Source: an uncultured delta proteobacterium (GTDB taxonomy: Bacteria; Desulfobacterota; Desulfobaccia; Desulfobaccales; 0-14-0-80-60-11). From it: DNA of 64,000 nt. Of the stretch, positions 33,322 through 52,440 are shown one piece after another. Under the pieces are notes generated by a model that was not told where the DNA came from, searched no databases, and was given only the letters and a program-made list of their open reading frames with translations. The first letter of the stretch is position 1; every line of letters starts with the position of its first letter. A program made the translations under genes and the position numbers. The stretch lies in contig CAWETI010000003.1 of NCBI GenBank assembly GCA_963812015.1, positions 64,001 through 128,000 of the forward strand. The letters are read 5' to 3'.

Positions 33322-33419
33322 CTCCGATCCTCCTTAGCCTCAGATTTTGCGGGGTTTCCGATCACCCGGGAGAGGTGAAGAAAAATTCTTCCCCTCCGGG
33401 AGTTCTCCGCACGGCGGGG

Positions 33420-35525: not shown

Positions 35526-35588
35526 CTATGGTCTTAAGATAAGATCGGGATAGACGTTCTCGTTTTATCCTTAACGGTTCAGGCCAGG

Positions 35589-37073: not shown

Positions 37074-39881
37074 TTGCCTCAGCGTCACAAATTCAAATCA
37101 TCCTGTGTCTCATTGATGCGGGGCTTTAGACTGTGCGCCTGGCCCATCCTGGCCATCGCCGTGGTTTTGGCCGTGGCGTCAGTTTACTATACCTATACCC
37201 ATCTGGCGATTCACACCAGCCGCAACGACCTGGTCGCCAGTGACCAGCACCTGGTCCAACAGACCGAAATAATGGACAAGGCCTTTGGCGGCCGTGATGG
37301 GATGGTGGTGGTGGTGGAGAACGGCCATCCTAAGCGGGCCGTCAAGTTCGCCGATGACCTGGCCGCCGAGTTGCGGCGCTATCCGGACTCCTTTCCCGAG
37401 CTTTTCTATCAAATCAACCCGGAGAGATTCAAACCCTCGGCCCTGCTCTATCTGGACCTCAAGGATCTCAACAAGATCAAAACCAGTCTCCTGGCACAGC
37501 ATAACCTGTTGTCGGGCCTGGCCGCCAACCCGCGCCTGACCACCTTTTACCAGTTGGTGAATGACCAGATGGCCCGGGCGATGGTCGGCGAGGTCTTCAC
37601 CGGGTTCCTGGCAGAAACGCCCAAGGAGGAGCTGCCGGACCTCTCCCTGTTGAACGCTTCCCTCCGGGGCCTCTCTGCCAGTCTGGAGGGCAAAAAGCCA
37701 GAGAATTCTCTGTTTAGTGGATTTTTCCCCAAGGAGTTAAGTGACTTAGAGGAAACCGGTTATTTTTTTACTGACAATGACAAGTTCCTCTTGTTCCTGG
37801 TGACGCCGGCCGGCGACGGGTACGCCACCCGCAGCAAAGACCTGGCTCTCCTGCGCCAAGTGGTGGAGCGGGTCAAAACCCGGTACCCCGGACTCCAGGC
37901 GGGGGTGACCGGCCCCGACGCCCTGGAAGCCGACGAAATGAGCAGTTCCATGCAAGACATCACCCTGGCCACCTGGTTGTCCCTGCTGGGCCAGATGGGA
38001 CTGCTGATCCTGTTTTTCCGCAGTCTGAGACGCCCCCTGGTGGAGGGGGCGGTCCTGATTCTGGGTCTGTGTTGGACCTTCGGATTGGTCACCTTGGTGG
38101 TGGGCCACCTCAACCTCCTCTCCCTGATCTTCGCGCCGCTTATGCTGGGCCTCACCATCGACTACGGCGTCCATTGGTTTTGCCGCCTGGAGGAAGAGGA
38201 AGCCGCGGTGGGCCACTGCAGTACCAATGTCTTGGCCAGCACCTTTCGACGCTCGGCCCCGGGGATTGTCTATGCGGGATTGGCCGCCGTGGTTTCCTTT
38301 GTGCCCCTGGCTTTCGTGGGCTTCAAGGGCCTGGCGGAATTGGGTCTGATCCTCGCCATGGGGATCCTGGTAATGCTGGTGGCCACCCTGGTCCTGGTGC
38401 CGGCCCTGGTGAGCATTACGGAAAAATGTCCACCTAGTGAATCTTGCGAGTATCCCCCGCCTCGCCCCAAGCCGTTCCTGCACCTGCATTGGCGCCGGCC
38501 CGGCCTGATGGTGGCGCTGGGGTTGGTGGTCACCGCCCTGGGCGGCCTCAGCCTGTACTACGTGCCCTTCGACTTGAATCCTCTGCATCTGCAGAATCCC
38601 ACCACCGAATCGGTGGTGTGGGAATACAAGCTGATTCAGGATTCCAAATATTCCACCTCCTATGGCGCCCTGGCCACCGCCTCCGTCAAGGAACTGGAGG
38701 CCCGGATCGAGGCCCTGAAAAGCCTGCCCACGGTCTCTCATGTGGAGTCGATCCTCTCTTTTCTCCCCCAACAGGTGGCCGAAAAACGTCAGATCATCCG
38801 GCAGATACTGCCGGAACTGAATGCCCTCACCTTCCCCCGGGCCCCGGCGGGACCCTCTGATCCCCAGAGGCTGGCTACGATCTTGAGCCGGATCAATTTT
38901 AAAATGGCCGAGGCCGCCAAGAATTTCGAAAAAGAGCAGGCGGCCACCAAGGAGCAGGTTGAGGAAACCCACCGGCTCATTAACCAGATCATTCCGCGGC
39001 TCCAGGCCCAGGACCCCCAAACGGCCAGCCGCCTTGAGGATTATAGCCAGTATTTTTTCTCGGATCTCAGAGATACCTGGGACTTGTTTAGGGGTTTTGC
39101 GGAATCGGGGCTGACCGCGCCGCCCCCCACCCTGCCGGATTTGCCCCAATCGGTGCGGCAGCGCTTCATCAGCCCCCAGGACACCTATCTCATCCGGGTT
39201 TTTCCCTCTGAAGACACCTGGAATTTTGTCCCCCTGAAACGGTTTGTCAAGAGCCTCTGGGGTGTCGACCCCAATGCCGTGGGCGACCCGGTGCTCCTCT
39301 ATACCTTTACCCTGGGGTTCCGTAATTCCATCCTTTGGGCGGCGGGCATGGCCCTGTTGGCCATTGCCGTCATGCTGGCGCTCTTATTCCGCAGCCTGAA
39401 AATGGCCATGCTGGCCCTCATCCCCCTAGTGGCGGGCACCGGCCTGACCGTCTGCATGATGTGGTTGCTGAAACTCCCCTTCAATCAGGCCAACGTGCTC
39501 TTCGTGCCATTGGTGCTGGGGGAGGGGATTGAATTCGGGATCATCATTCTGGCCCGATGGCAGCTGGAGGAATCGGCCCGGGCCATTACCCTGCCCGCCA
39601 GCACCGCCAAAGGGGTGGCCCTGGCGGCCTTGACCACCACCCTGGGGTTCGGCAGTTTGATGGTTTCGGGGCACGAGGGCACCTTCAGCCTGGGACTCCT
39701 GGCCACCGTGGGCAGCCTCAGTGTGCTCCTGGCTTCTTTAAGCATCCTGCCGGCCTTCCTCCGCTTGGTGGAAAGAGGCTACAGTCGTCAACCCGCGTTC
39801 CGGCCTTACCCTAGCCTGGGACGATGGGTAAATAATATGATAAGGAAAAAAGCCGATGAAAAAACCGCTCTGGATCATTAG
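37074..39881 (+). CDS. hpnN: MMPL/RND transporter, hopanoid-associated HpnN-like
   Basis: Two TM bundles (GLTIDYGVH, TTTLGFGSL), LNPLHLQNP.TESV; directly upstream of an HpnM/MlaC-like gene. Start uncertain. Confidence 0.75.
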   Translation: MPQRHKFKSSCVSLMRGFRLCAWPILAIAVVLAVASVYYTYTHLAIHTSRNDLVASDQHLVQQTEIMDKAFGGRDGMVVVVENGHPKRAVKFADDLAAELRRYPDSFPELFYQINPERFKPSALLYLDLKDLNKIKTSLLAQHNLLSGLAANPRLTTFYQLVNDQMARAMVGEVFTGFLAETPKEELPDLSLLNASLRGLSASLEGKKPENSLFSGFFPKELSDLEETGYFFTDNDKFLLFLVTPAGDGYATRSKDLALLRQVVERVKTRYPGLQAGVTGPDALEADEMSSSMQDITLATWLSLLGQMGLLILFFRSLRRPLVEGAVLILGLCWTFGLVTLVVGHLNLLSLIFAPLMLGLTIDYGVHWFCRLEEEEAAVGHCSTNVLASTFRRSAPGIVYAGLAAVVSFVPLAFVGFKGLAELGLILAMGILVMLVATLVLVPALVSITEKCPPSESCEYPPPRPKPFLHLHWRRPGLMVALGLVVTALGGLSLYYVPFDLNPLHLQNPTTESVVWEYKLIQDSKYSTSYGALATASVKELEARIEALKSLPTVSHVESILSFLPQQVAEKRQIIRQILPELNALTFPRAPAGPSDPQRLATILSRINFKMAEAAKNFEKEQAATKEQVEETHRLINQIIPRLQAQDPQTASRLEDYSQYFFSDLRDTWDLFRGFAESGLTAPPPTLPDLPQSVRQRFISPQDTYLIRVFPSEDTWNFVPLKRFVKSLWGVDPNAVGDPVLLYTFTLGFRNSILWAAGMALLAIAVMLALLFRSLKMAMLALIPLVAGTGLTVCMMWLLKLPFNQANVLFVPLVLGEGIEFGIIILARWQLEESARAITLPASTAKGVALAALTTTLGFGSLMVSGHEGTFSLGLLATVGSLSVLLASLSILPAFLRLVERGYSRQPAFRPYPSLGRWVNNMIRKKADEKTALDH

Positions 39882-40446
39882 CCTGGCCCTGGCCGCTGGT
39901 TGCATGTGGATCATGCCTGCGGGAGCGGAAACCCCTACGGGTTATATCCGGAGTATCTTGGACAAGGTGATGGCCATCCAAAATGACCCGGCCCTGGCCG
40001 GCCAGGCCCGGGCCCAGGCCGTTCACAAGGTCATTGAGCAGAGCTTCGATTTTACCCTGATGGCCAAAGACTCCCTGGGGGAGACCTATGGTCGCCTTAG
40101 CAATGGCCAACGCCAGGAATTTACCCGCACCTTCAGCTACCTGTTCCAGGATTCCTACACCCGCCTGGTCCTCAACTTCCTGAAAAAGGAAAACATCCAA
40201 TACGGCCAGGAACGCCCGGAAGGCAACGGAACCCGGGTGGACACCACCATCGTCCGCACCAATGAAAACATTCCGGTGGCTTACTTGATGCGCCAGGCTC
40301 CCCAGGGGTGGCTGCTCTTCGACGTCATTGTGGATGGGGTGAGCATCCTCCACAACTACAAGACCCAGTTCGCCCAGGTCATCCAAACCAAGTCATTTGA
40401 TTTTCTCCTCAATAAACTGGAAGAACAGCGCCGGGCCATTCAATAG
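39856..40446 (+). CDS. MlaC/Ttg2D (HpnM-like) periplasmic lipid-binding protein
   Basis: Signal peptide, FDFTLMAKDSLG, DVIVDGVS...YKTQF. Confidence 0.85.
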   Translation: MKKPLWIISLALAAGCMWIMPAGAETPTGYIRSILDKVMAIQNDPALAGQARAQAVHKVIEQSFDFTLMAKDSLGETYGRLSNGQRQEFTRTFSYLFQDSYTRLVLNFLKKENIQYGQERPEGNGTRVDTTIVRTNENIPVAYLMRQAPQGWLLFDVIVDGVSILHNYKTQFAQVIQTKSFDFLLNKLEEQRRAIQ

Positions 40447-40459
40447 CCGTTGGAAGGCC

Positions 40460-40514
40460 ATAGGGACGTGATGGATCACGCCCCAAAAGGGCGCACACAC
40501 GGGTGCGCCCCTAC
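40460..40514. repeat. REP doublet (related copy 47123-47182)
   Basis: TAGGGACGTGAT..ATCACGCCCC + GGGCGCACacacgGGTGCGCCCCTAC. Confidence 0.6.
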
Positions 40515-40792
40515 GTTCAATTCCTTCTTTTTTGCATGCAACCCAGGACAAAATGGCTTGTAGTTGCGCTCGAACCGTGACACCTAAAGTCCATCACCCC
40601 CGGCTTACCTAAATTTGCTCAGCAGATTCCATCGGCAGTCCCGGCATCCTCCCGCCTGAGCCCCGCAATCTTAACAATTATTAATTTTAATATAACACAT
40701 GTTAACCAAAGTCGTTAATTGGGTAGACGCGGGAAAAGGGGGCAGAGATATATTACCAAGAAAAACAGTCGGTTTTATGTTGCAGATTAGGC

Positions 40793-40808
40793 TGGCACCT
40801 TTTTTGCT
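40793..40808 (+). promoter_or_regulatory. Sigma54 (-24/-12) promoter of the tusA-hdr operon
   Basis: TGGCAC-CTTTT-TTGCT with exact GG-N10-GC spacing, about 75 bp upstream of tusA, preceded by an AT-rich palindromic UAS-like region (40671-40720). Confidence 0.85.
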
Positions 40809-40883
40809 TAACATAAAATGCAGATAAGATCAGCCGCCGGCACGGGGTGGCCGGACCATTCAAGGCTCAAAAGGAGAACCACC

Positions 40884-41138
40884 ATGTCTGACGTCGATCT
40901 GACCACGATCAAAGCCGCCAACGTAGTGGATGCCCGGGGCAGCGCCTGTCCCGGCCCTTTGCTTGAAGCCAAAAAGGGAATCGGCAAGGTGAAAGTGGGC
41001 GAAGTGCTGGAAGTGCTTTCCAATGATGCCGGCACCAAAGAAGACGTTCCCATCTGGGCCAAGAAGGTGGGACACGATTATCTCGGGTTCCTCCCCGCCG
41101 ACGGGTATGACCGGATCTTCGTGGTTCGGAAAAAGTAA
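40884..41138 (+). CDS. tusA: TusA-family sulfurtransferase
   Basis: VDARGSACPGPL (CPxP), GEVLEVLSNDAG, W..KVGH; AAGGAG RBS. Confidence 0.88.
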   Translation: MSDVDLTTIKAANVVDARGSACPGPLLEAKKGIGKVKVGEVLEVLSNDAGTKEDVPIWAKKVGHDYLGFLPADGYDRIFVVRKK

Positions 41139-41150
41139 GCCAGAACTGCC

Positions 41151-41585
41151 ATGGCAGCCCAGCAACCTCCAGGGAAAATCTTGATTTTGGCGACGGAAAG
41201 TTGCGCCTATCCCGGGGCTGACGCCGTGGGGCAGGCGCACCAGAGTTATCCGGCCAACGCCTATATCCTCAAGGTCAGAGCCCCGGTGCTTTTCCCGGAG
41301 CAGTTTTATCTGGACTGTTTTGCCAAGGGTATTGCCGGCATCATCATCATGTCCTGCGGTGTGGAGTGTCCCTATGAAGGCGCTTATGACGGCCTGGCCA
41401 AGCGCATCGACCGGGTCTACGTCCTGATGAAAGAACGGGGCCTGGACATCCGCCGCCTCAGGCTTACCTCCATCTGCACGGTGTGCACCCGGGCCTTTAT
41501 CAAAGAAGTCAACCTGATGAACGAAGTGGTGGCGGAATTGGGCCCCCCCGGCGCCGAACGCGCGAGGGCGGCCAACCTGGCCTGA
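41151..41585 (+). CDS. MvhD/FlpD-like iron-sulfur subunit (divergent)
   Basis: CAYPGAD..G...Y, GIAGIIIMSC..ECPY, GLDIRRLRL match the MvhD layout. Confidence 0.75.
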   Translation: MAAQQPPGKILILATESCAYPGADAVGQAHQSYPANAYILKVRAPVLFPEQFYLDCFAKGIAGIIIMSCGVECPYEGAYDGLAKRIDRVYVLMKERGLDIRRLRLTSICTVCTRAFIKEVNLMNEVVAELGPPGAERARAANLA

Positions 41586-41640
41586 GGCCGCGCCCGGCCT
41601 AACGTGTTAGTAAGCACCGCAACCTCCCAGGAGAACAGTA

Positions 41641-42951
41641 ATGGGTCCACAACGTGTGGTTCAAGTTGAGGCGCTGGTCATCGGCGGCGGGATTGCCGGA
41701 TTGGAGGCGGCCCTGAACCTGGCCGAGCAAGATTTTGCCGTCGCCGTGGTGGAAAAGGATGCCTCCATCGGGGGCAAGATGATCCGGCTCTCCAAAGTCT
41801 TCCCCACCCTGGATTGCGCCAGCTGCATTACCACCCCGAAAATGGCGGCCGCGGCCCATCATCCCAATATTACCCTGTTTACCTACTGCGATCTCCACTC
41901 CCTGGAGCGGCAAGGGGACACCCTGGTGGCCGCGATCCGCCAAAAACCCCGGTATGTGGACGAAGGCAAGTGCATCGGCTGCCGGCAGTGCGAGTATGCC
42001 TGCCCAGTTCACGTCCCCGACGCCGACCAGGGGGGCTTTCTGGCCCGCAAGGCCATTTATATCCCTTTTTCCAATGCCATTCCGCCCATCGCCCTCCTGG
42101 ACGTGGAGCATTGCATGCTCTGCGGCCAATGCGAGAGGGTCTGTCCAACCCAAGCCGTCAATTATTTTCAGGAGCCGGAGGATTTTTTCATCACCGCCAA
42201 AACCGCCATCGTGGCCACCGGTTTTGAGCTGACCCCCCTTGCGAACAAGGTCCAGTACGGCCAGGGCAAGATCCCCAACGTGTTGACGGCCCTCCAGATG
42301 GAACGTCACCTGGCCCCCCATGGGCCCTATAACCGGGTGCTCAGGCCCTCTGACGGCAAGGAGCCGGATTCCGTGGCCTTCGTGCAGTGCGCCGGTTCCC
42401 GGGACCAGAGCCTGGGGGTGGCCTACTGTTCCCGGGTGTGCTGCATGTATGCCATCAAACAGGCCATGCTCCTGTCCGGGTCTTTGCCCCTGGCGGATAT
42501 CACCATCTACTACCTGGACATCCGGGCCTTTGGCAAAGGGTACGAGCAGTTCTTTCAGAACGCCCAGGCCATGGGCATTGCTTTCGTGAAGGGGAAAGTG
42601 GCTTTCCTCGACCCCGGCCCCGACGGCTCGGTGCTGCTGCATTACGAATCTCAGGAGGCCGACGGCGGCGTGAGTGTAGCCGAACATGATCTGGTGGTGC
42701 TGTCCCTGGGAATGTTACCGGGCTGGCAGCCGGCAAGTGTTTGCGCCCTGGGGACCGGGCCGGACCACTTCATTAAAACCGTGAAGCCCAAAATCGCCCC
42801 CACCTTAACCGACCTGGAAGGGGTGTTTGTGGCCGGCGCGGCGGCAGGGCCTAAAGATATCGTCGACAGCATTGTGGAAGCCGGGGCCGCGGCGATGGAA
42901 GCTTCCCGCTACCTGACCGGGGCAGGCCCGACCAAACGGGCGGTGGCGTGA
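41641..42951 (+). CDS. hdrA: HdrA-family flavoprotein (short form with inserted ferredoxin)
   Basis: IGGGIAG, FPTLDCASC, CIGCRQC..CP and CMLCGQC..CP, QCAGSRD..YCSRVCC, DIRAFGK, GPKDI. Confidence 0.88.
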   Translation: MGPQRVVQVEALVIGGGIAGLEAALNLAEQDFAVAVVEKDASIGGKMIRLSKVFPTLDCASCITTPKMAAAAHHPNITLFTYCDLHSLERQGDTLVAAIRQKPRYVDEGKCIGCRQCEYACPVHVPDADQGGFLARKAIYIPFSNAIPPIALLDVEHCMLCGQCERVCPTQAVNYFQEPEDFFITAKTAIVATGFELTPLANKVQYGQGKIPNVLTALQMERHLAPHGPYNRVLRPSDGKEPDSVAFVQCAGSRDQSLGVAYCSRVCCMYAIKQAMLLSGSLPLADITIYYLDIRAFGKGYEQFFQNAQAMGIAFVKGKVAFLDPGPDGSVLLHYESQEADGGVSVAEHDLVVLSLGMLPGWQPASVCALGTGPDHFIKTVKPKIAPTLTDLEGVFVAGAAAGPKDIVDSIVEAGAAAMEASRYLTGAGPTKRAVA

Positions 42952-42973
42952 AGCCATGAGGGGAGATGCAGGC

Positions 42974-44914
42974 ATGGCGGCAGAAAAGCACCACTCCGCA
43001 ACCGCTCCGATTGCCAAAGTCGGGGTTTACGTCTGTTATTGCGGCGGCAACATCGGTGACCAGGTGGACGTGGAAAAAGTTTGTGAGCGGGTCCGAACCA
43101 TTCCCGGCGTGGTCGTGGCCCGATCCAACCAGTTCATGTGCTCCGATCCCGGCCAGGAACTGATTATGGAGGACCTCAAAAGCGGTCGGGTGGATCGGGT
43201 GGTGGTGGCGTCCTGCTCCCCCAGCCTGCATGAGGACACCTTCCGCCATACTCTGGCCCGGGCCGGCGCCAATCCCTATGTGTATGAGCATGCCAATCTG
43301 CGGGAACAGGTGAGTTGGGTGCATCACGGCGCGGCAGCCACCGACAAAGCCACCCGACTGGTGGCGGCGGCGGTGGGCAAGGCCAGAATGCTCCAGCCCC
43401 TGGAGCCGATCCGGGTGGAGGCCCGGCGGCACGCCACCGTTATCGGGGGAGGCGTGGCCGGCCTCAGAAATGCTCTGGATCTGGCGGAGCGCGGCATCCC
43501 GGTGGCTCTCCTGGAAAAAACCCCGTTTTTGGGAGGGCAAGCCGCCCAACTGGACCGGCTCGCCCCCTACGGCGCACGCGCCGCCGACCTGGTGAGCGAG
43601 CTTACCGCCGCGGTCCTGGGTCATCCCGACATCAGCGTGTATCATTGCGCCCAGGTGGAGGCTTTCGAGGGCTACATCGGCAATTTCACCCTCAGTGTGG
43701 TCCGCACCCCGCCCACCGCCCCGGCCGAGGCGGAAAGCCTGGCAAAGGTCAGCCTCTCCGGGAAAGGCCCGGGGGAGTTCATCCCCTTTGTGGGGGTGCT
43801 CCCGGCAGCCATTCCCCAAACCACCGAGGAGTTCGCCCTCAACACCGGCGTCATTGTCCTGGCCACCGGCTTCAAGACCTACCGGCCCCGCCGGGGTGAA
43901 TACGGTTTCGGGGACTTTCCGGAAGTGGTCACCCTGCCGGACCTCATCAGACTACTGGCCGAAGATGCCAAGCCCGGCGAGACCCTGGTTATTAACGGCC
44001 GCCCCATCAAACAGGTGGCGATGATCCACTGCGTCGGGAGCCGCCAGATTCCCGGCATCCACGAAGAGAATGAAGGCGGCTACCTGAACGAATATTGCTC
44101 CCGGGTCTGTTGCAGCGCCACGCTCCAGGCCGCCAATCTTATCCGGGAGACCTATCCCCGGACCAGGATATTCGACTTTTACCGGGATATCAGGACGTAT
44201 GGCCGGGGGCAAGAGGAGCTTTATACCCGGGCCGCCCAAAACAAGGTGCTGTTCTTCCGCTTTGAGGCTGATGCGCCTCCCCAGGTCAGGTCCACGGCCC
44301 AGGCCGCCGACCATCCCCTGGTGGTCAGCGTCCAAGACTCCTTGACCTTCGGCGAGGCAGTGGACGTGCCGGTGGATCTGGTGGTGCTGGCGGTGGGGAT
44401 GGAACCCAATGAGATCACCGACCTGGTGGGGCTGATGAAACTGCCGGTGGGGGCGGACCGTTTCCTCCAGGAAGTCCACCCGAAGTTGAGGCCGGTGGAG
44501 ATGTCCGTGGCCGGGATTTTGCTGGCCGGCACCTGTCAGGCCCCCTTTGACATCGGGGAGTCCTGTGCCGCCGCGTCCGGCGCCGCGGTCAAAGCCGCGG
44601 CGATCTTGACCCGGGGTCATGTGGAACTGGACCCCTTTGTGGCGGAAGTTGATCTGGACAGGTGCCGGGGGACCGGCGCTTGTGTTGCGGCCTGCCTGTC
44701 GGAAGGGGCTTTGTCCCTGGCCGAAATTGACGTGGACGGCCAAAAGGTGCAACGGGCCCAGGTCAATCCGGCCCTCTGTCTGGGTTGCGGCGCCTGTGTG
44801 GCGGTCTGTCCCGAAAATGCCATCAATATCAAAGGCTGGACCCTGAAGCAGTACGAGGCCATGGTGGACATGATCGTCTCGGATGCCTATTTCGGCGAAG
44901 CTGAGGCGGGATAA
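42974..44914 (+). CDS. hdrA: HdrA-family flavoprotein (N-terminal Cys domain + C-terminal ferredoxin)
   Basis: VCYCGGNI, FMCS, ASCSP, NLREQ, IGGGVAG, HCVGSR..YCSRVCC, HPKLRPVE, CLGCGACVAVCP. Confidence 0.88.
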   Translation: MAAEKHHSATAPIAKVGVYVCYCGGNIGDQVDVEKVCERVRTIPGVVVARSNQFMCSDPGQELIMEDLKSGRVDRVVVASCSPSLHEDTFRHTLARAGANPYVYEHANLREQVSWVHHGAAATDKATRLVAAAVGKARMLQPLEPIRVEARRHATVIGGGVAGLRNALDLAERGIPVALLEKTPFLGGQAAQLDRLAPYGARAADLVSELTAAVLGHPDISVYHCAQVEAFEGYIGNFTLSVVRTPPTAPAEAESLAKVSLSGKGPGEFIPFVGVLPAAIPQTTEEFALNTGVIVLATGFKTYRPRRGEYGFGDFPEVVTLPDLIRLLAEDAKPGETLVINGRPIKQVAMIHCVGSRQIPGIHEENEGGYLNEYCSRVCCSATLQAANLIRETYPRTRIFDFYRDIRTYGRGQEELYTRAAQNKVLFFRFEADAPPQVRSTAQAADHPLVVSVQDSLTFGEAVDVPVDLVVLAVGMEPNEITDLVGLMKLPVGADRFLQEVHPKLRPVEMSVAGILLAGTCQAPFDIGESCAAASGAAVKAAAILTRGHVELDPFVAEVDLDRCRGTGACVAACLSEGALSLAEIDVDGQKVQRAQVNPALCLGCGACVAVCPENAINIKGWTLKQYEAMVDMIVSDAYFGEAEAG

Positions 44915-44985
44915 GGCCATGGCCCGGGAAAACCGTTCCCGGGTCAAAATTAAGAAACTGACGGACCCCTAACCCTTGAGGTTTG

Positions 44986-45321
44986 ATGATGCGTGACGCC
45001 CCGACTGATCAAGAGGATAGAAAAGCGGCGCTGAAGCAGCTCCGGGAGGCTCGCCGGGAAACCATCGCCGCAGCCACCCGCCGGGTTAAGGAGCAGAAAA
45101 AGGCCATCAGGGCCATCAAAGCCCAGTTATCCGGAGGCGATCTGACGGTGCCCGAACTGGCCGCGGCCACCGGCATGCCGATGTCCGAGGTGATGTGGTT
45201 CGTGGCCTCTCTAAAAAAATATGGAGCAGTCCTGGAGGGTCCCAAGGACGGGAGTTACTTTCGGTATCAGCTGGCCGATAGCGCCTCGGAAGAGGTGGAG
45301 CCGGCCAGCCCCGAATCGTGA
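44986..45321 (+). CDS. Small winged-helix protein within the hdr operon
   Basis: LTVPELAAATGMP...LKKYG.V...YFRY. Confidence 0.7.
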   Translation: MMRDAPTDQEDRKAALKQLREARRETIAAATRRVKEQKKAIRAIKAQLSGGDLTVPELAAATGMPMSEVMWFVASLKKYGAVLEGPKDGSYFRYQLADSASEEVEPASPES

Positions 45322-45369
45322 CCTGGCCCGCCGCCGGCAACCCTGATCCGCCGATACCGAGGAGGCAGC

Positions 45370-45681
45370 ATGGCTTCCGTTGATCCACAATTTGCCGAAG
45401 AACTTGAGTTGTATGGGGTCGATACGGCTCTGGACTGCTTCAACTGCGGCACCTGTGCCGCGATCTGTCCCCTGCAATACGAGCATTTCCCCAGGAAAAT
45501 CATTCGCTACGTTCAACTGGGGGCCCGGGAGAAACTTCTCCAAAATGCCGAGGAACTCTGGCGCTGCCTGCATTGCGGGCTCTGCACCCAGACCTGTCCC
45601 CGGCAAGCCAATCCCGGCGAGCTGCTTTTGGGATTGCGCCGCTTTATGGTGGCCACTTGGAGGAGGACTGAAGATGTATAA
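45370..45681 (+). CDS. HdrC-like 2x[4Fe-4S] protein
   Basis: CFNCGTCAAICP and WRCLHCGLCTQTCPRQ; GGAGG RBS. Confidence 0.85.
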   Translation: MASVDPQFAEELELYGVDTALDCFNCGTCAAICPLQYEHFPRKIIRYVQLGAREKLLQNAEELWRCLHCGLCTQTCPRQANPGELLLGLRRFMVATWRRTEDV

Positions 45682-46615
45682 CCCCCGGCACATCATCGAC
45701 CTGATTGCCATCAACGTCCGGAAAACCGGCAATCCTTTCGGGGTCCCGGCCGCCATGATTAACCAATGGTGGAAAGGCGTGCCCCAGGGGACCCGGCGGG
45801 AGGGCGACGCCCTGCTGTTTACCGGGCTGATGTACCAATCCATCCCTTATATTGAAAACACCACCCGCTATCTGGAGCGCTTTGAAGGGACGCCCTGGGC
45901 CGGTTATCTGAAATTCAGCAAGTATACCCGTTATGTGCCCAATTGGCTGGTGGGCTGGGCCTTTGTCTGCCTGACCTCCAGGGCCGAGCGCCGGAAATAT
46001 AACGGCATCGTGCAGGGTATTTACCGAATTTTGAAAAAGGCCCAGGTGGATTTCTTCTATCGGCCGGAACTCGATGGTTACAGCGGCATATTGCTCTACG
46101 ACCTGGGGGATCATCAGGGCTTTATCCGGCATGCCCGGGCAATGGCCAAGAACTTGAAGCTCCATGGGGTCAAGAAGATCATCACGGTGGACCCCCACAC
46201 CACCTATGCCTTGAAGGTGCTCTATCCCAAGTATGCGGGGGCAAGCTTTGAAGTGCAGACCTACTTTGAGTTAATTGACTTCAAGGCCGGCAACGGCCAT
46301 CCCCCCGTGGCGGTCCATGACCCGTGTTTCTACGGCCGCTATCTCGATTTGTCCGAAGTGCCCCTCAAGGTGCTCCATAACCTGGGGGTGGGCTGTGTGG
46401 AAGTTCGCCGGAGCGGCAATTTTACCCATTGCTGCGGCGGTCCGGCCGAGTCGGTGTCGCCGGCCCTCACCCGGGAGATCCTTGGGCACCGGGTCGAAGA
46501 ACTCAAGGCGACTGGGGCGCCCGTGGTGACTATGTGCCCTATTTGCCTGGCCAATCTCACCAAAGCCGGGGTCGAGGTGGAAGATCTTTCCAGTCTGATC
46601 GCCCGCTGCGCCTAA
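45674..46615 (+). CDS. CCG-domain (HdrB/HdrD-like) Fe-S protein
   Basis: GNPFG, TVDPHT, HDPC, HCCGG, MCPIC; AGGAGG RBS, overlaps the hdrC stop. Confidence 0.82.
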   Translation: MYNPRHIIDLIAINVRKTGNPFGVPAAMINQWWKGVPQGTRREGDALLFTGLMYQSIPYIENTTRYLERFEGTPWAGYLKFSKYTRYVPNWLVGWAFVCLTSRAERRKYNGIVQGIYRILKKAQVDFFYRPELDGYSGILLYDLGDHQGFIRHARAMAKNLKLHGVKKIITVDPHTTYALKVLYPKYAGASFEVQTYFELIDFKAGNGHPPVAVHDPCFYGRYLDLSEVPLKVLHNLGVGCVEVRRSGNFTHCCGGPAESVSPALTREILGHRVEELKATGAPVVTMCPICLANLTKAGVEVEDLSSLIARCA

Positions 46616-46722
46616 GCAGGTAAGTTATAAGGGGCCTCAACCGGCGAGAGCCCCCGGCTCCCTGAGGTTGCAGGCTTGATAGCTAAAGGCGCCACATCAT
46701 TTACCCTAAAAAGGAGAACAAC

Positions 46723-47091
46723 ATGGCAGACACGGAAAAAATCGTTTTGATTCTGACCCACGGCCCCGAAGACCCGGACCGGGCCACCATCCCCTTTGCT
46801 ATGGCCAATGCGGCCCTGGCTATGGAGGTGGAAGTAGTGGTAGCCCTGCAAGGCTCCGCAGTGCTGCTGGCCCAAAAGGGGAGCGCGGAACACATTTTTG
46901 CCCCCAATTTCCCGCCCCTGAAAGAATTGATCGAGAGTTTTTTCTCTCAAGGCGGCCAACTTTTAGTCTGCGTTCCCTGCCTCAAGGCCCGTAAGCTCGA
47001 GGAGTCGGACCTTATTGCGGGAGCCCAGGCCACCGCCGCGGGCCGGCTGATTAAAGAGATCTTGGAAGCCAAATCGACCCTGAACTACTAA
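46723..47091 (+). CDS. DsrE-family sulfur carrier/peroxiredoxin-like protein
   Basis: THGPEDPDRATIPF, LQGSAV, LVCVPCLKAR. Confidence 0.85.
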   Translation: MADTEKIVLILTHGPEDPDRATIPFAMANAALAMEVEVVVALQGSAVLLAQKGSAEHIFAPNFPPLKELIESFFSQGGQLLVCVPCLKARKLEESDLIAGAQATAAGRLIKEILEAKSTLNY

Positions 47092-47122
47092 TGCCAGGTC
47101 GCCAACCAAAGACGATTTGCTT

Positions 47123-47182
47123 GTCGGGGCGGACCCATGGGTCCGCCCTGGATTGAGGGCGCACAGGCGGGTGCGCCCCTAC
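47123..47182. repeat. REP doublet
   Basis: GGGGCGGACCCatGGGTCCGCCC + GGGCGCACaggcgGGTGCGCCCCTAC. Confidence 0.6.
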
Positions 47183-47251
47183 AATTCCACATTTTTCGAT
47201 TGCGACTTGGGATAAGAGGCGGCCAGGACGTAATCCGCTGGATCGCACCAG

Positions 47252-47384
47252 AGAAGCTATTTTAAAACCGGGGTATTGTGTCACCCTGAGCGCTCACGAA
47301 TGGCCTAGGTTATTGGAAAGAATAGATTCTTCGCTTCGCTCAGAATGACAAACTGGCGCAAAAAGATGTTTTGAAATAGGTTCT
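47252..47384. mobile_element. MITE-like element enclosing a TGTCA..CTGAGCG/CGCTCAG..TGACA palindrome
   Basis: Terminal inverted repeats AGAAGCTATTTTAAAAC / GTTTTGAAATAGGTTCT (15/17); inner element 47279-47350; a partial related sequence lies near 49011-49034. Confidence 0.55.
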
Positions 47385-47437
47385 AAACTTCTCGCTGGCA
47401 GGGACGGCGGCGCCCACAAGAAAGGGCTCGGTCCCCA

Positions 47438-48832
47438 TCAAACGGCGATTAACTTCTTCACGTCGATGCCGTATTTTTTCATGCGGTGCCACACGGTGAT
47501 CCGACTCACCCCGAGGAGGACCGCGGCCCTGGATTGATTGCCGCCGGTCTGGCGGAGAGCCGCGACCAGGGCCGTCTTTTCATCCGTTCCGGCGCTCCCC
47601 CGGCCCTCCTCCGGGATCTTTTGGAAGGATGCCGGGACGTTTACCGTGGGCGGGAGGTGTTCGGGATGGATGAGGCCTTTTTCCGCCAGGACGAAAGCAT
47701 ATTCCAGGACCCCTTTCAGTTCCCGGACATTGCCCGGCCAGGGGTGGTCCATGATGAGCCGCATGGCGCCGGGGGTTAAACCGGTTATGGGCTTGCCGCT
47801 CTTCTCCCGGAGCCGTCGGATAAAATGATTCACCAGCAGCGGCACGTCCTCCATGCGGTCCCGCAAGGGGGGCAGATGGATGGGGATGGCATTGATGCGG
47901 AAAAACAAGTCCTCCCGGAACTTCCCCCGGGACACCAGCGACTCCAGGTCTTGGTTGGTGGCCGAGATGATGCGCACATCCACCCTGATGGACCGCACAT
48001 CTCCCACCCGCTCGAACTGTTTGGTTTCCAAAACCCTGAGCAGTTTGACCTGGGTGGACAGGGGAATATCGCCGATTTCATCCAGAAAGATATCCCCGCG
48101 GTTCGCCGCCTCAAATCTTCCCTGGCGATGGCTGTAGGCCCCGGTAAAGGCCCCCTTGACGTGGCCGAAAAGCTCGCTCTCCAACAAGGCTTCATTCAGA
48201 GCCGCACAATTGAACTGGATGAAAGGTCCATCCCGCCGCTTGCCCAATTCATGGATGGCCAAAGCCACCAATTCTTTCCCGGTGCCGCTTTCGCCATAGA
48301 TGATTATGGGAGCGTCACTCTGGGCGGCTTTTTCGGTTAGTTCAAAAACTCGCCGCATAACGGCGGATTTTCCCACGATGCCATAAAATTCGTCCTCGTC
48401 CTCCAACAGCCGGGAGAGCTGCTGGATTTTCTGGTCCCGCTTGGTAATTTCCGAGATATCCGTGAGGGTTTCCACCGCCCCTAACACCTCGCCGGCCGCG
48501 TTCCGTAAAATGGAGGCGTTTTTCAAGACGTGCACATACGAGCCATCTTTGCGGATTAGCAGGCAAGGTTTCCGGGTGGCGGAACCCAAATCGAACAGGT
48601 CGCACCAGTGTCCCTTCCCCTCGGCCCGGGCGATTTCACAGGCATCGCAATGAATAAAACCGCAGGAGGCGCCGATGAGTTCGTCCCGGCTGTAGCCGAT
48701 CATTTCCTCGAAAGCCCGGTTGACCATCATGATGGTGCCGTCCGGGGCCACCACCACCAGACCATCATTCATGGTATTGATGATCTCTCGGCAATACCGA
48801 TACATCCCTTGTTCATCACATCCCTGGTTCAT
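47438..48832 (-). CDS. Sigma54-dependent activator (PAS-AAA+-Fis HTH)
   Basis: PAS, GESGTGKE, ESELFGHVKGAFTGA, FLDEIG, WPGNVREL, GNQSRAA. Confidence 0.93.
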   Translation of the reverse strand: MNQGCDEQGMYRYCREIINTMNDGLVVVAPDGTIMMVNRAFEEMIGYSRDELIGASCGFIHCDACEIARAEGKGHWCDLFDLGSATRKPCLLIRKDGSYVHVLKNASILRNAAGEVLGAVETLTDISEITKRDQKIQQLSRLLEDEDEFYGIVGKSAVMRRVFELTEKAAQSDAPIIIYGESGTGKELVALAIHELGKRRDGPFIQFNCAALNEALLESELFGHVKGAFTGAYSHRQGRFEAANRGDIFLDEIGDIPLSTQVKLLRVLETKQFERVGDVRSIRVDVRIISATNQDLESLVSRGKFREDLFFRINAIPIHLPPLRDRMEDVPLLVNHFIRRLREKSGKPITGLTPGAMRLIMDHPWPGNVRELKGVLEYAFVLAEKGLIHPEHLPPTVNVPASFQKIPEEGRGSAGTDEKTALVAALRQTGGNQSRAAVLLGVSRITVWHRMKKYGIDVKKLIAV

Positions 48833-49301
48833 CCTGGCCTACCCCGGTGACTGTTTTAATAACTGTTTTAACATAAATCATAAGCCACCCCAGGCCCGAT
48901 TGCCAGCGAATATTCCCTCTTGGAGGGGAATATCAGGGGAAGTTACCCTACCACTTGCTCAATGAAAACTGCTTAGGAGGCCCAGGATCGCAACTCATTG
49001 AACATACAAGGTGCTTCGTTTTGCTCAGGATGACATTTTAGGGGCAATTGAGGTTTTGAGAGTGCGGCTGGGAAAAATTAGACGGGAAAATGTCCCGACT
49101 CTCGGACTGCATCACCGGAGCGGGAGAAAATTAAAGGGCGGAGTGATATACTCCGCCCATACCCTGCTTACCGAAAGCAAAATACCTCGGTCCCCGAACC
49201 TGGGGTCCCCATCTCTCCGGTCCAACCGCCCTTTTATAAAAGTTATAAAAGGGGGAATTTAAAACCCCGCCGAAAATATCGCTCAGTTACGCCACCACGT
49301 A

Positions 49302-50534
49302 CTAAGCCAACATCTCCGCGGCCTGGCGCATGAGCGCGGCGATGGCCAGCTTTTGGGGGCAGGCCCGCTCAGCCTGGGAGTAGTCCACCTCGGCCAACCG
49401 CTGCCGAATCGCCTCGGGCAGTCCGGCGAAGGTCAGTTTGGCCAGCTCCGGCTCGCCATAGTACCGATGGTACATGAGGCAGCGCATGACCTCGTTCACG
49501 GGCACGGCCCCGCCCACGGCCTCCTGGCAAAGGTTGCCGCAGCCGGCGCAGTAGTCGGCCTGGGTCTCCAGGGCATACTGGCGCAGGGATTCGAACTCTT
49601 CCCGGGCCAGTTTGGCCTGGTCCCGGGCCGCAGCCACGTTGGCCATGAGGATGGTCAAGTTGGGCATCTGGGAGCAGAGGCTGGCGATTTGGGGGTTTTC
49701 CCAGACCACCTTGAGCTTGGCCTGCTTGTCCGTGAAGCCCCGTTTCAGGAAGCGCTCGGCCATCTCCAGCTTGGCCTCGCTGGCGATCTTGGGCGCGCCC
49801 GGCCCGCCGGCCTGGCTCTTCATGGCCACCAACCCAACCCCGGCCTTCTCGCAAGCGTTCATAGCTTCTTTCAACTTGGGGTCCTGCATGACCCGGAAGT
49901 TGTAGCTGAACATCACTGCGTCGATCCAGCCCAGCTTGGCCGCGCCTGAGAGGCAATCCGCCATGTTGGTGTGGGTGCTGAAGCCGAAGAATTTGAACTT
50001 GCCCGCCTTCTTCATCTCCGCGCCCCAATCCTTGATGGCCGGGGTCATTTGGTCGATGCCGGTGAGGCTGTGGATGAAGAACAGGTCCACGTGGTCCGTC
50101 TGCAGCCTTTTCAGACACTTATCCAGGCGTTCGGTGAGGTTGCCGCCCTTGGCCTGGAGCTTGGTGACCAGGAAGATTTCCTTGCGGGCTTCGGGGTTGC
50201 GGGCGAAGAAGCGGCCATAGCCATCTTCGCTCAGGCCGTTGCCGTAAGACTCGGCCATGTCCCAGTAGGTGACCCCCCATTTCATCGCCTGCTTGAGGAG
50301 CAGTTGGTTGTTGATGGTGTCGAACATGCCCCCCAGGCAGAGGCTGGACACCTCCACCCCGGTCTTGCCCAGCTTCCGTTTGGGCGTGGTCCCGGCCGGG
50401 GCGGGGCCGGCCGGCTGCTCCGGCGCGGCGATGGCCCCGGTGGCGCCGGCCCCCGCCACCGCGAGGCTGGCCAGTCCGACGGTCTTGACGAAATCCCTGC
50501 GGGTAACGCCTGTATCGTTGCTCTTCCGGCTCAT
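49302..50534 (-). CDS. Aldo/keto reductase-family protein with Tat signal and C-terminal Fe-S motif
   Basis: TRRDFVK; RKLGKTGVEVS.LCLG, WDMAESY, LVTK, DLFFIH, GFSTH, AMK; CAGCGNLC...C...CP. Confidence 0.85.
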   Translation of the reverse strand: MSRKSNDTGVTRRDFVKTVGLASLAVAGAGATGAIAAPEQPAGPAPAGTTPKRKLGKTGVEVSSLCLGGMFDTINNQLLLKQAMKWGVTYWDMAESYGNGLSEDGYGRFFARNPEARKEIFLVTKLQAKGGNLTERLDKCLKRLQTDHVDLFFIHSLTGIDQMTPAIKDWGAEMKKAGKFKFFGFSTHTNMADCLSGAAKLGWIDAVMFSYNFRVMQDPKLKEAMNACEKAGVGLVAMKSQAGGPGAPKIASEAKLEMAERFLKRGFTDKQAKLKVVWENPQIASLCSQMPNLTILMANVAAARDQAKLAREEFESLRQYALETQADYCAGCGNLCQEAVGGAVPVNEVMRCLMYHRYYGEPELAKLTFAGLPEAIRQRLAEVDYSQAERACPQKLAIAALMRQAAEMLA

Positions 50535-50689
50535 GGTAGTTACCTCATAGTCTGATGATTAATGGATGGTTTAATACAAATTGAACGCGTTTATAAGTCC
50601 TAATTTCTTCAAGATGGATTGAGGGGAATTATGAAGGCTCAGGTGATCCTCCCGAATAGCCCCCCACACCCAGGGCCCGCTTCACTGCT

Positions 50690-52423
50690 CTAAATGAGCA
50701 TGCGCCCCGGACCTGAACGGGATTCGTTTTCACTGTATACCCGAATGGCCCGCAGGCCCGATACCGGGCATTCATGCTCGCACATGCCGCAGCCGATGCA
50801 CCTGGCAGGGTCCATGAAAGGACGCTGCAATCTCACCACAATATCCACCCGTACTCCGGCTGCCGGGGGGCTGTCTCCGGCCAGGGGGCGCTCTATGGTC
50901 AGCCGGGTTCCCGCCAAGCCGGTAATGCGCCTAAGCGCGGCCTCGGGCTGCCCGGTGGCCCGCAGGTAGTAGTCGCCGCTGGCCAGGTTCACCGCGGTGG
51001 GGATAGCCGCATCCAGGATCACCCCTGGTCCCTGAACCTTGGCCGGTACGGCCTGGCCGTCCCGGATGGTTTCAAATGTCGTCCGGGTGAAGATGGCCTT
51101 GGGGCTCACGGGGCACAATTCATGACAGACCAGACAGGGCCGGTCCATGGCCCAGGGCAGGCAGCGGGTGCGGTCCACGAAGGCGGTGCCCATGCGGATC
51201 GGCCCCTGGGCGGCGAACTCGCCGGCGCCTTGCTTTTCCTCGAGGCTTAAGGGGCGGATGGCCGCGGTGGGGCAGACCTGGCCGCAGGCGATGCAGTTGG
51301 GCTGGCAGCCGCTGCGGCCGATGCGGTAGTTGACCGCCGGGGTCCACAAGCCCTGCACCCCGGCTTCGAGCACGGCGGGTTGGATGATGTTGCCGGGGCA
51401 GATACGCATGCATTGGCCGCAACGGATGCAGCGGGCCAGGAAACGCTCCTCATCCAGGGCCCCGGGTGGACGGATGAGGTTGGGGTTACGGTTGGTCCCG
51501 GCCAGTCCGCCGACTTCCCACATGGATACCAGGAGCAGCCCCGACCCGGCCACGATAAACCCGCGCCTGGACAAGTCCGGCAACCCCACCTCACCGGCCG
51601 CCGAGGGTTTGTCGGCAAAGGTGATCCGGCCGGCGGGGCAACGGTGCAGGCAGTTCATGCACAGCACGCACTCGCCGCCAATGATGGTTCCCGAGGGACG
51701 GCAGGCGCCTTCGCAGTATTCCTCACAGATGCGGCAATCGCCGCAGCGATCCGAAGTCTTGCCGATGCGCCAGGGGGTGAAACGGCTCAAGAGGCCGAAG
51801 AGGGCTCCCAGCGGGCAGATGAACCGGCAGAAGAACCGGGGCAAGACCAGGTTCAAGCCCACCACTCCCAGGAACACGACCCCGAACAGCCAGGTCGAGG
51901 CGTAAAAGCGCGGCGCGTCGCTGAGTAGGCCCAGGCGGTTATCGGCCAAGGGGGCCAGGGCCAGGTTGACGCTGCGGTGCAGCAGGGGCAGCGGGTCAAA
52001 AATCCCAGTCTGCACCGACCCCATGAGAGCCAGGGCCAGCAGAAAGGCCAGGAGATAGTATTTTAAGGCCTGGGCCCGGCGGTGGCGATTGGCCTCCACC
52101 CTGCCACCCATGCCTTGACCCCGCCGCCCCAGCCAACCGGTGAATTGGTTGATCGTGCCCAGGGGGCAGGCGAAGCCGCAGAAAAACCGGCCTAGGAACA
52201 GGGTCAGCCCGATGGTGACCAGGGCCCAGGCCAGGGGTGCAGAGAAGGTGTGGGTGGACAAAACCGTGCTGATCGCGGTGAGGGGGTCCAGTTCCAAAAT
52301 CCAGTTGATGGGCCAACCGCGCAACTGCCACCAAGCCGCCCCGAGGGTGGCCGTGATGCAAAACCACAGGAAAACCGCCAGGAAGAAGATTTGGCTGATG
52401 CGACGGACGGTGACGATGCGCAT
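50690..52423 (-). CDS. Membrane polyferredoxin, NapH/MauN + NapG/MauM-like fusion
   Basis: GRFFCGFACPLG, RFFCRFICPLG, internal SRRGF, RPPGA...CIRCGQCMRICP, further CxxCxxCxxxCP motifs. Confidence 0.85.
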   Translation of the reverse strand: MRIVTVRRISQIFFLAVFLWFCITATLGAAWWQLRGWPINWILELDPLTAISTVLSTHTFSAPLAWALVTIGLTLFLGRFFCGFACPLGTINQFTGWLGRRGQGMGGRVEANRHRRAQALKYYLLAFLLALALMGSVQTGIFDPLPLLHRSVNLALAPLADNRLGLLSDAPRFYASTWLFGVVFLGVVGLNLVLPRFFCRFICPLGALFGLLSRFTPWRIGKTSDRCGDCRICEEYCEGACRPSGTIIGGECVLCMNCLHRCPAGRITFADKPSAAGEVGLPDLSRRGFIVAGSGLLLVSMWEVGGLAGTNRNPNLIRPPGALDEERFLARCIRCGQCMRICPGNIIQPAVLEAGVQGLWTPAVNYRIGRSGCQPNCIACGQVCPTAAIRPLSLEEKQGAGEFAAQGPIRMGTAFVDRTRCLPWAMDRPCLVCHELCPVSPKAIFTRTTFETIRDGQAVPAKVQGPGVILDAAIPTAVNLASGDYYLRATGQPEAALRRITGLAGTRLTIERPLAGDSPPAAGVRVDIVVRLQRPFMDPARCIGCGMCEHECPVSGLRAIRVYSENESRSGPGRMLI

Positions 52424-52440
52424 GGTGTGTTGTCCGAGAA

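Follow-up and report, generated by a model that had tools for sequence, protein, structure and literature searches.

A conserved Qmo/HdrA-type operon with built-in TusA and DsrE genes and an exchangeable end unit in an uncultured delta proteobacterium

We analysed a stretch of 64,000 nucleotides (the window; contig CAWETI010000003.1 of assembly GCA_963812015.1, positions 64,001 to 128,000) from an uncultured delta proteobacterium, and studied the operon module at 40671..48880 of this window. The module consists of eight co-oriented genes, tusA-mvhD-hdrA1-hdrA2-wHTH-FeS-CCG-dsrE, in which wHTH denotes a small winged helix-turn-helix protein, FeS an iron-sulfur protein and CCG a CCG-fold protein; a convergent gene for a PAS-type sigma54 activator accompanies them (Table 1). 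A sequence-only reading of the same DNA had described these eight genes with their convergent activator, and they were found where it had placed them. The operon also lacks, in its gene content, any hydrogenase, flx, integral-membrane or lipoate gene, as that reading had stated. Pfam and NCBIfam searches gave TusA (PF01206, E 1.6e-19), FlpD/MvhD (PF02662), CCG (PF02754) and DsrE (PF02635) domains. For both HdrA-like proteins the top NCBIfam family was HdrA2, with 453 and 507 bits, under its cut-off of 1100. The names of its close homologues indicate Desulfobaccales. The module is single-copy and accessory in the host genome, which also holds dsrAB, a separate sat-aprBA-qmoABC locus, selA and many other hdrA loci.

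Conservation of the operon and exchange of its end unit

Loci related to the module were collected in four samples. The first (a), selected by the CCG protein, comprised 13 loci from relatives of the host and 38 from a genome collection (L029 repeats L009). Among the 38 collection loci, 31 were modules and seven were archaeal loci without the module; the module hosts belonged to the Desulfobacterota, Chloroflexota, Acidobacteriota, Desulfurellales, Archaeoglobaceae and Nitrososphaeria. The second (b), selected by the wHTH protein and independent of the first, comprised 43 newly fetched loci, two of which were unrelated Hdr clusters and one a remnant. The third (c) was made up of the best 80 of 532 metagenome loci matched by the variant MvhD, and the fourth (d) of 19 Chloroflexota loci from 17 genomes, two of them partial at contig ends. 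A CCG orthologue of >60% identity was found in 13 of 40 relatives of the host, the wHTH protein in 46 of 401 genomes of the phylum, and the module in 18 of 301 Chloroflexota genomes. Among named cultured organisms, those with a deep-type CCG protein, judged by the match to this protein alone, include Desulfotruncus, Desulfallas, Desulfolucanica and Desulfoscipio.

The invariant core of the operon is tusA-mvhD-hdrA1-hdrA2-wHTH-FeS. The tusA gene stood directly upstream of the variant mvhD in all 76 metagenome loci with at least 350 nt of room and in 19/19 Chloroflexota loci, mostly with a gap of about 10 nt, and the C22-P-G-P motif of TusA was invariant in 62/62 proteins. The tusA gene was also present in 38 of the 43 wHTH-selected loci; the other five were two contig ends, the remnant and the two other loci. 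The dsrE gene was present in 38 of these 43 loci as well. Whether tusA and dsrE are kept beside these hdr genes in other genomes was the check that the sequence-only reading had proposed for itself, and it was passed. The operon is conserved across phyla and domains.

The small wHTH protein had no family match and no cysteine. Its predicted fold was a long N-terminal helix followed by a winged helix (predicted local distance difference test score, pLDDT, 88), with generic ArsR/MarR matches. Its homologues formed 524 clusters at 50% identity (E<=0.001), and 41 of the 43 fetched matches from the phylum belonged to the module or its remnant. Judged by these matches, the wHTH protein is a specific marker of the module. 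No fusion was evident among the best 150 representatives, one of which was a 1053-aa repeat protein. The remnant operon (L112) retained wHTH, a truncated FeS gene, dsrE and the activator, while tusA, mvhD and both hdrA genes were not found there.

The end of the operon, in contrast to its invariant core, was exchangeable. FeS and CCG genes were found in 21 of the 43 loci of the second sample, a QmoC-like gene without CCG in 14, and an HdrD-like fusion after dsrE in five. The QmoC-like proteins were 373-398 aa long with 4-6 predicted transmembrane segments, and of the 14 loci of this type, 12 showed tusA and 12 a CxxC-type dsrE. Both forms recurred in the Chloroflexota (11 QmoC-like, 7 CCG, one not reached) and in the 18 metagenome loci that reached the end unit (7 QmoC-like, 11 CCG). 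In an HdrA2 tree, computed by a quick search without a mixture model from 68 rows (25 chosen from the first sample, 40 from the second, the window and two host outgroups), the QmoC label needed six changes, at least four of which were forced by starred branches, and one swap was a pair nested within the host's own clade.

The QmoC-like proteins, five of the 14 being scanned, matched NF038018 along their whole length with 185-241 bits (cut-off 300, host QmoC 449), and three histidines were invariant in all 14 and common with the host QmoC. The FeS protein of the window had QmoC, not HdrC, as its top NCBIfam match (81 vs 51 bits), and was 41-51% identical to the N-termini of the QmoC-like proteins of the module and 36% to the host QmoC. 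The label 'hdrC-CCG' in the sequence-only reading was therefore loosely right, but the FeS protein corresponds to the N-terminal domain of its QmoC-like replacements. Because of this match, the CCG protein would stand in for the QmoC-like membrane domain.

The CCG protein holds one intact motif, C218-X34-C253C254-X33-C288xxC291, whose five cysteines were invariant in 58/58 proteins; its N-terminal domain is free of cysteine, so that one cluster site is lost. At the place of the T/GECGH cysteine of DsrK/TmcB it reads TVDPH, with Asp (a correspondence drawn from the motif and not from aligning DsrK). The model of the protein (pLDDT 89) matched EtfD best (Z 25.5, root-mean-square deviation 2.2, 256 aligned), followed by LutA (22.5) and HdrB (19). 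A basic and aromatic helical insert lies at about residues 74-122.

These data bear directly on the mechanism that the sequence-only reading had proposed, a soluble complex in which the CCG protein turns over TusA/DsrE persulfide (TusA/DsrE-SSH) in place of CoM-S-S-CoB. In a wider form, the complex would be a soluble Hdr whose non-cubane CCG cluster reduces or oxidises TusA/DsrE persulfide, or a DsrE disulfide or trisulfide as DsrK does with DsrC. The intact five-cysteine motif, the HdrB fold and the usual position of dsrE after the CCG gene favor it. Published work, cited here by PMC number, adds that DsrK works with a single non-cubane cluster, for which the T/GECGH cysteine is needed (PMC10861901), and that true Qmo in its QmoAB-HdrBC and QmoAB-HdrD variants is presumed not to be coupled to the membrane (PMC10504309). 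However, in 14 of 43 loci the core stands with a QmoC-like integral membrane protein and no CCG protein while the carriers mostly stay, the swap is recurrent, one cluster site is lost and the critical cysteine is Asp. In addition, the top fold matches, EtfD and LutA, are electron-transfer proteins, and relatives from archaeal Lut clusters are interspersed with the module proteins. We consider catalysis at the CCG protein unlikely, though the best placed of three alternatives that were weighed. The exchange of the end unit is the main result against the proposed mechanism, and neither 'soluble, without a membrane part' nor the CCG site was upheld.

Seven archaeal CCG relatives outside the module were compared, the close ones being 43-50% identical. 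Five of the seven were followed by LutB-like genes, in four cases together with LutC, and a gene for an oxidase with flavin adenine dinucleotide (FAD) preceded the CCG relative in three loci. This arrangement matches the lldEFG layout of A. fulgidus described by Hocking et al. (PMC3949148). In the CCG tree these seven proteins were interspersed with those of the module (two changes; long branches flagged). From the tree and the Lut-cluster relatives, the CCG subunit appears to behave as a portable electron port.

Table 1. Genes and putative regulatory sites of the operon in window coordinates
Feature	Position	Strand	Basis or remark
Candidate upstream activator site 1, TTAACA-N2-TGTTAA-like palindrome, 1 mismatch	40671..40684	.	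palindrome scan
Candidate upstream activator site 2, 21 bp from site 1	40692..40705	.	palindrome scan
Sigma54 -24/-12 promoter consensus, TGGCAC-N5-TTGCT	40793..40808	+	sequence match
TusA-family sulfur carrier, 84 aa, C22 in CPGP	40884..41138	+	PF01206
Variant MvhD, 144 aa	41151..41585	+	PF02662; C109-x-x-C112, A44
HdrA1 (QmoA-like architecture), 436 aa	41641..42951	+	alignment; 32% identical to host QmoA
HdrA2 (QmoB-like without fused MvhD), 646 aa	42974..44914	+	28% identical to host QmoB
Small winged-helix protein, 110 aa	44989..45321	+	start may be 44986; predicted fold
2x[4Fe-4S] protein, 103 aa	45370..45681	+	8 Cys invariant in 44/44
CCG-fold protein, 313 aa	45674..46615	+	PF02754, one stretch, residues 211-294
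DsrE-family protein, 122 aa, CVPC	46723..47091	+	PF02635
PAS-AAA+-HTH sigma54 activator	47438..48832	-	PAS + sigma54 AAA+ + Fis-HTH

The HdrA pair, MvhD and the sulfur carriers

The domain set of HdrA is divided between HdrA1 and HdrA2 as two complementary partial chains; residues are numbered here from the alignment with 5ODC. HdrA1 has the FAD domain with the inserted 2x[4Fe-4S] part, lacks the N-terminal and C-terminal domains, and retains the equivalents of K409, E356, C194 and C197, although E356 is Asp in part of a deep subtype. HdrA2 has the N-terminal cluster domain, the FAD domain and the C-terminal ferredoxin, and has lost the equivalents of K409, E356 and C197. The lysine at the K409 position was found in 109/109 HdrA1 matches vs 1/87 HdrA2 matches. 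Wagner reportedly described in 2017 that C197 binds the N-terminal cluster of the partner and that K409 and E356 mark bifurcation; with these roles, the retained residues would suit an obligate heterodimer in which only one flavin bifurcates. In the deep subtype, HdrA1 is about 900 aa long with an NAD(P)H-binding insert. A conserved dithiol like that of sHdrA was looked for in HdrA2 and not found (C521 and C531 occur in 23/35). In several assembled genomes (L005, L006, L012, L025) hdrA2 was split by a frameshift mid-gene, likely a sequencing error.

MvhD differs from its canonical form at its cluster ligands. C109 and C112 were present in 73/73 module proteins and in 0/6 canonical MvhD domains of the host (in the third and fourth samples, this CxxC was partly selected by the query), and solved MvhD structures read ISASE at this place. 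None of the module proteins had the full canonical ligand set. Position 44, the canonical second ligand and Ala in the window protein, was Cys in 18/73; positions 18 and 69 were Cys in 54/73. A search for longer fused MvhD forms gave two matches, apparently frameshift artefacts, which is weak evidence. No donor gene for MvhD (hydrogenase or formate dehydrogenase) was found among the recurrent neighbours. Complex prediction for the variant MvhD with TusA gave a median of 0.26 against a mark of 0.32 and was used neither way.

DsrE was near-universal in the Desulfobacterota, with its gene switching between both ends of the operon, and looser in the Chloroflexota. Its motif in the first sample was CxxC in 23, UxxC in 12, UxxU in one and another in one of 37 proteins, and in the second sample CxPC in 37/38 and UxPC in 1/38. 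In the selenocysteine (Sec)-type genes TGA lies exactly at the position of the first Cys, with full homology downstream; a hairpin sequence was common to all 13 TGA cases examined (close kin; a similar one occurs in three Cys-coded relatives). Of the 14 genomes with a dsrE of the Sec type, 13 gave a selA match. This exchange of Cys and Sec suggests that CxxC/UxxC is a redox-active site. DsrE is of a CxxC/UxxC redox type and not a plain single-cysteine carrier. Several distinct families of DsrE and of TusA were independently recruited into the operon.

Further genes of these families were observed around the operon. A second DsrE-family gene (CKxC) lies between mvhD and hdrA1 in L003, L005, L006, L009, L012, L031, L089 and L094, and related copies, one form of which reads CxxU (L031, L094), lie near the activator. 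A divergent TusA-like open reading frame (ORF), which lacks the CPxP cysteine in the copies viewed, adjoins the activator or precedes tusA in L001, L009, L014, L019-L026, L040 and many of L082-L110. In Desulfobacterales, dsrE at the end of the operon is followed by a conserved gene (L017, L026, L032, L051) whose Cys-rich product of about 234 aa has no Pfam match.

The presence of both carriers can be read in another way, namely that they merely assemble or regulate the complex, by providing sulfur for the unusual MvhD cluster or by switching. The complex would then be a general ferredoxin/NAD(P)H:quinone or type II Qmo electron shuttle with a non-sulfur partner, or with APS (adenosine 5'-phosphosulfate) reductase encoded elsewhere. 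TusA-family proteins are generic sulfur traffickers, and the MvhD ligands are atypical; aprA is present in most Desulfobacterota hosts. Type II Qmo, moreover, functions in sulfate reducers that have been characterised and is found in the absence of Apr/Dsr as well (PMC10504309). Against this, 12 of 49 genomes with the module gave no aprA match, homologues of the module-type tusA and dsrE were absent from the other host Hdr/Qmo loci fetched (tblastn and ORF lists), and the independent recruitment of several DsrE and TusA families also speaks against it. We hold this second alternative to be quite unlikely. As for the sulfite reductase gene, dsrA was found in 35/41 genomes of the second sample and matched in 1/17 Chloroflexota module genomes, and four module genomes rated 99-100% complete had neither dsrA nor aprA (two were searched less 72 kb).

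Regulation and flanking regions

The consensus -24/-12 promoter named in the sequence-only reading is present and is kept upstream of the operons of relatives. It is the sole exact match to TGGCAC-N5-TTGCT in the window, with 0.14 expected and 12 of 100 shuffles reaching one, so that the match taken alone is modest evidence. In the first sample, 17/32 loci were preceded by a looser form of the -24/-12 pattern, and in the second 16/23 loci with the activator vs 2/15 without it. Across 75 upstream regions, the commonest spaced palindrome was AACA-N2-TGTT, which ranked top in 21 of them vs at most 6 in shuffles (kin not independent). The host genome holds 51 such palindrome sites with up to two mismatches, and only the two at the operon lie 40-220 nt before a -24/-12 match. 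Because of this position, the operon is probably the only target of the activator in the host genome.

The PAS domain of the activator has five cysteines, C57, C62, C65, C77 and C90, invariant in 45/45 proteins, and in relatives the gene lies convergent or divergent beside the operon. Depending on the locus, the regulator gene encodes either this five-cysteine PAS activator or an ArsR-family protein; both types would fit a redox or sulfur signal, which we count in favor of sulfur turnover by the complex. OrpR is a precedent for an activator with an Fe-S PAS sensor, with cysteines C52/C61/C65 (PMC8359166). Its C-X8-C-X3-C [4Fe-4S] triad was not found here, where the spacing is C-X4-C-X2-C-X11-C-X12-C, so that the likeness is an analogy only. 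All five PAS cysteines recur in the closest host paralogue of the activator (50%), which lies in L134 (G000:C3:2056000-2068000), divergent from genes for TauE, a hypothetical protein, a PhsA-like enzyme and an Fe-S subunit; this locus resembles the 'moly cluster' of sulfur disproportionators.

A third alternative is redox-stress defence or sulfane detoxification without energy coupling, in which DsrE would be a thiol-dependent reductase or a peroxiredoxin-like sink recycled by the HdrA pair. The exchange of Cys and Sec at the first CxxC position, the Cys-rich PAS activator reminiscent of OrpR despite its different spacing (PMC8359166) and the patchy presence of the module (13/40 relatives, 46/401 phylum genomes) are consistent with it. 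However, such a system has no need for a quinone-reactive membrane subunit or for conserved bifurcation residues, and the invariant partner is tusA, not dsrE. It is the least probable of the three alternatives.

The flanks were also inspected. Similar short inverted-repeat elements, seen by eye, lie on both sides of the operon (about 40485-40515 and 47100-47185), and the depth of contigs from RNA runs peaks over the second; they are probably a dispersed repeat of the host genome. No terminator-like site was found on the + strand after dsrE. Small word shares of the operon occurred in 24 RNA runs, which were rejected as evidence of expression, since the contigs of four of these runs showed 90-99% relatives across genes and flanks alike. 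Upstream, 37074-40446 (+) encodes an HpnN-like resistance-nodulation-division (RND) transporter with MlaC, and downstream, 49302-54476 (-) encodes DUF6599, DUF362, a NapH-like Fe-S membrane protein and a twin-arginine translocation (TAT) aldo-keto reductase; both flanks are unrelated to the module. A SIR2-like domain protein, possibly a defence gene, lies at 14837-16276 (+) in a low-GC stretch (0.45).

Farther upstream, the region 30504-36539 (-) holds a gene (33420-35525) for a PhsA-like molybdoenzyme that lacks an evident TAT leader and has 484 bits on NF012032, below its cut-off. The gene is flanked by a TupA-like gene on one side and a tupABC-like tungstate transporter on the other, with no Fe-S partner gene directly adjoining. 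This gene, 5 kb upstream, was rejected as a part of the system, as a related gene lay beside the module in only two other loci of the first sample.

Relation to known systems and proposed function

The layout matches no characterised Hdr class among those compared, which agrees with the sequence-only reading. The nearest likeness is to Qmo, including QmoAB-HdrBC and QmoAB-HdrD: two unequal HdrA-like subunits, MvhD, and an end unit that is QmoC, FeS+CCG or HdrD-like. An exchange of QmoC, HdrBC and HdrD has been reported for true Qmo by Neukirchen et al. 2023 (PMC10504309). Unlike Qmo, the module has no aprAB beside it, and the host's separate qmoABC is 28-36% identical in the matching subunits. 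Its MvhD is free-standing, placed before hdrA and provided with a new CxxC, while tusA, dsrE, wHTH and its own activator are built in. The link with tusA/dsrE is unmentioned in the available parts of PMC10504309, and the table supplement of that paper gave no matches. As for type I QmoABC, no apr gene is present, MvhD is separate, and the FeS protein has 81 bits against a cut-off of 300. Type II Qmo is described as closer to typical HdrA, with or without Apr/Dsr and of unclear function (PMC10504309); its published clade holds the Ammonifex and Vulcanisaeta proteins. HdrA1 gave 366-387 bits to solved methanogen HdrA vs 205 to the host QmoA, a comparison across different programs and hence indicative only. 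It is possible that the module belongs to type II Qmo, and part of its family may be listed under this name by Neukirchen et al.

Methanogen HdrABC-MvhAGD (5ODC) shares with the module the HdrA fold, the K409/E356/C197 equivalents in HdrA1, MvhD, a 2x[4Fe-4S] protein and the CCG fold. The module differs in that HdrA is split asymmetrically rather than one chain, with K409/E356 in HdrA1 only. It has one CCG motif instead of the two of HdrB, its MvhD ligands are altered, and it has neither a hydrogenase nor a formate dehydrogenase as docked donor. FlxABCD-HdrABC does not apply, as no flxABCD was found in the operon or among the recurrent neighbours. DsrK/TmcB/HmcF resemble the module in combining 2x[4Fe-4S] with a single C-terminal CCG motif and in having a small two-cysteine partner protein nearby. 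In the module, however, this unit is split in two genes without the T/GECGH cysteine or DsrM, its partner has a DsrE fold, and it occurs without dsrA; no operon protein had a DsrK/TmcB match in NCBIfam.

The sHdr system of sulfur oxidisers (hdrC1B1A-hyp-C2B2, LbpA) likewise encodes an HdrA-like flavoprotein with TusA and DsrE. The module differs in lacking the HdrB1/B2 pair and a lipoate-binding gene, in having MvhD and in its anaerobic hosts, and no lipoate-binding family was seen among the recurrent neighbours scanned. Moreover, HdrA1 retains the bifurcation residues, which sHdrA is not known to have. Archaeal LldEFG/LutABC clusters (A. fulgidus AF0808-0811, compared by layout; PMC3949148) hold the nearest non-module relatives of the CCG protein, and mycobacterial EtfD is its best structural match. 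Only this subunit is in common, and the module wires it to HdrA. The hdr loci of D. reducens (PMC4759654) were rejected as the same system because their layout differs, and the available parts of PMC12142623, PMC13490349, PMC4759654, PMC5276818 and PMC5861303 cover other Hdr or TusA/DsrE loci. Full-text searches, with most subscription papers outside their reach, found no description of the operon. We regard it as a conserved Qmo/HdrA-type operon, undescribed in the literature searched and built from known parts, with a reasonable prospect that its substrate class is new.

The exchangeable end, together with a single-motif CCG protein that has relatives in lactate clusters, points to an orphan Qmo-like complex and not to a soluble HdrABC. 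The partner of this complex would be a sulfur relay in place of APS reductase. HdrA1, HdrA2 and MvhD would assemble into an asymmetric heterodimer in which a single flavin bifurcates. The exchangeable unit would be its high-potential port. In the QmoC form this port would face menaquinone; in the window genome its partner would be some thiol/disulfide, or else quinone, reached by way of a CCG protein bound at the surface. The low-potential port would be ferredoxin at the ferredoxin domain of HdrA, or NAD(P)H where HdrA1 has the NAD(P)H insert. The two-electron mid-potential port would be the remodelled MvhD/HdrA1 side, normally the dock of a hydrogenase, to which TusA would deliver sulfane sulfur, with the CxxC/UxxC DsrE as a collector or recycling dithiol. 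In net terms, quinol and reduced ferredoxin or NAD(P)H would confurcate to reduce protein-bound sulfane sulfur to sulfide, or the reverse. The potentials are about -270 mV for sulfane/sulfide, -74 mV for menaquinone and -450 mV for ferredoxin. The mean of the outer ports is therefore about -260 mV, so that the reaction would be near equilibrium and either direction possible.

In favor of this scheme we count the constant place of tusA before the variant mvhD, the carriers kept where the CCG gene is absent, the repeated swaps of the end unit, the QmoC-like features of the membrane form, the lysine found in HdrA1 and almost never in HdrA2, the NAD(P)H insert of the deep subtype, the separate sat-aprBA-qmoABC and dsrAB loci of the host, and the modules in genomes with no dsrA match. 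Several observations weigh against it. One archaeal locus (L033) had neither carrier nearby, and dsrE was not universal: the 18 Chloroflexota loci that reached the last unit gave nine with dsrE, six with a DsrE2-type or weak match only and three with none. The CxxC of MvhD may do no more than re-ligate an Fe-S cluster, as the deep-subtype protein shows only four cysteines among the positions tested (44, 73, 109, 112). The short-HdrA1 subtype does not encode any electron-donor enzyme, and the residues retained in HdrA1 are no proof of bifurcation. Attachment of the CCG protein to the membrane is weakly supported: it has no transmembrane segment, and its helices at 74-100 are basic and aromatic with a low hydrophobic moment.

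On balance, protein-bound sulfur as the substrate, which the sequence-only reading had proposed, remains the most likely reading, but probably not at the CCG site. We tentatively favor the view that sulfane sulfur borne by TusA/DsrE is turned over, by bifurcation or confurcation, at the MvhD/HdrA side, although with less than even confidence. The fuller claim is more doubtful, namely that the operon represents a widespread, uncharacterised HdrA-based bifurcating class, independent of DsrAB/DsrC, whose MvhD port is a thiol/persulfide site. The same doubt applies jointly to its reaction, in which quinol with ferredoxin or NAD(P)H would reduce TusA sulfane sulfur in the cytoplasm, or the oxidation of sulfide or a dithiol would drive ferredoxin reduction. 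In a host of the sulfate-reducer type, the module would be an accessory inducible system, most likely reducing or detoxifying polysulfide or elemental sulfur (S0).

How anaerobes reduce or disproportionate S0 and polysulfide in the cytoplasm is still open, as the literature says for disproportionation. The operon is one testable candidate, present in about 11% of the sampled Desulfobacterota and 6% of the sampled Chloroflexota genomes, and cultured spore-forming sulfate reducers are among the named carriers of its CCG protein. It offers mutable sites in TusA (C22), MvhD (C109/C112), HdrA1 (the lysine) and DsrE (CxxC/UxxC), together with a dedicated activator and candidate binding sites. Orphan qmoC or hdrA matches in metagenomes do not necessarily imply sulfate reduction or methanogenesis. 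If the proposed function is true, the operon would supply a missing route for S0/polysulfide respiration, disproportionation or tolerance in sulfate reducers, Chloroflexota and archaea.

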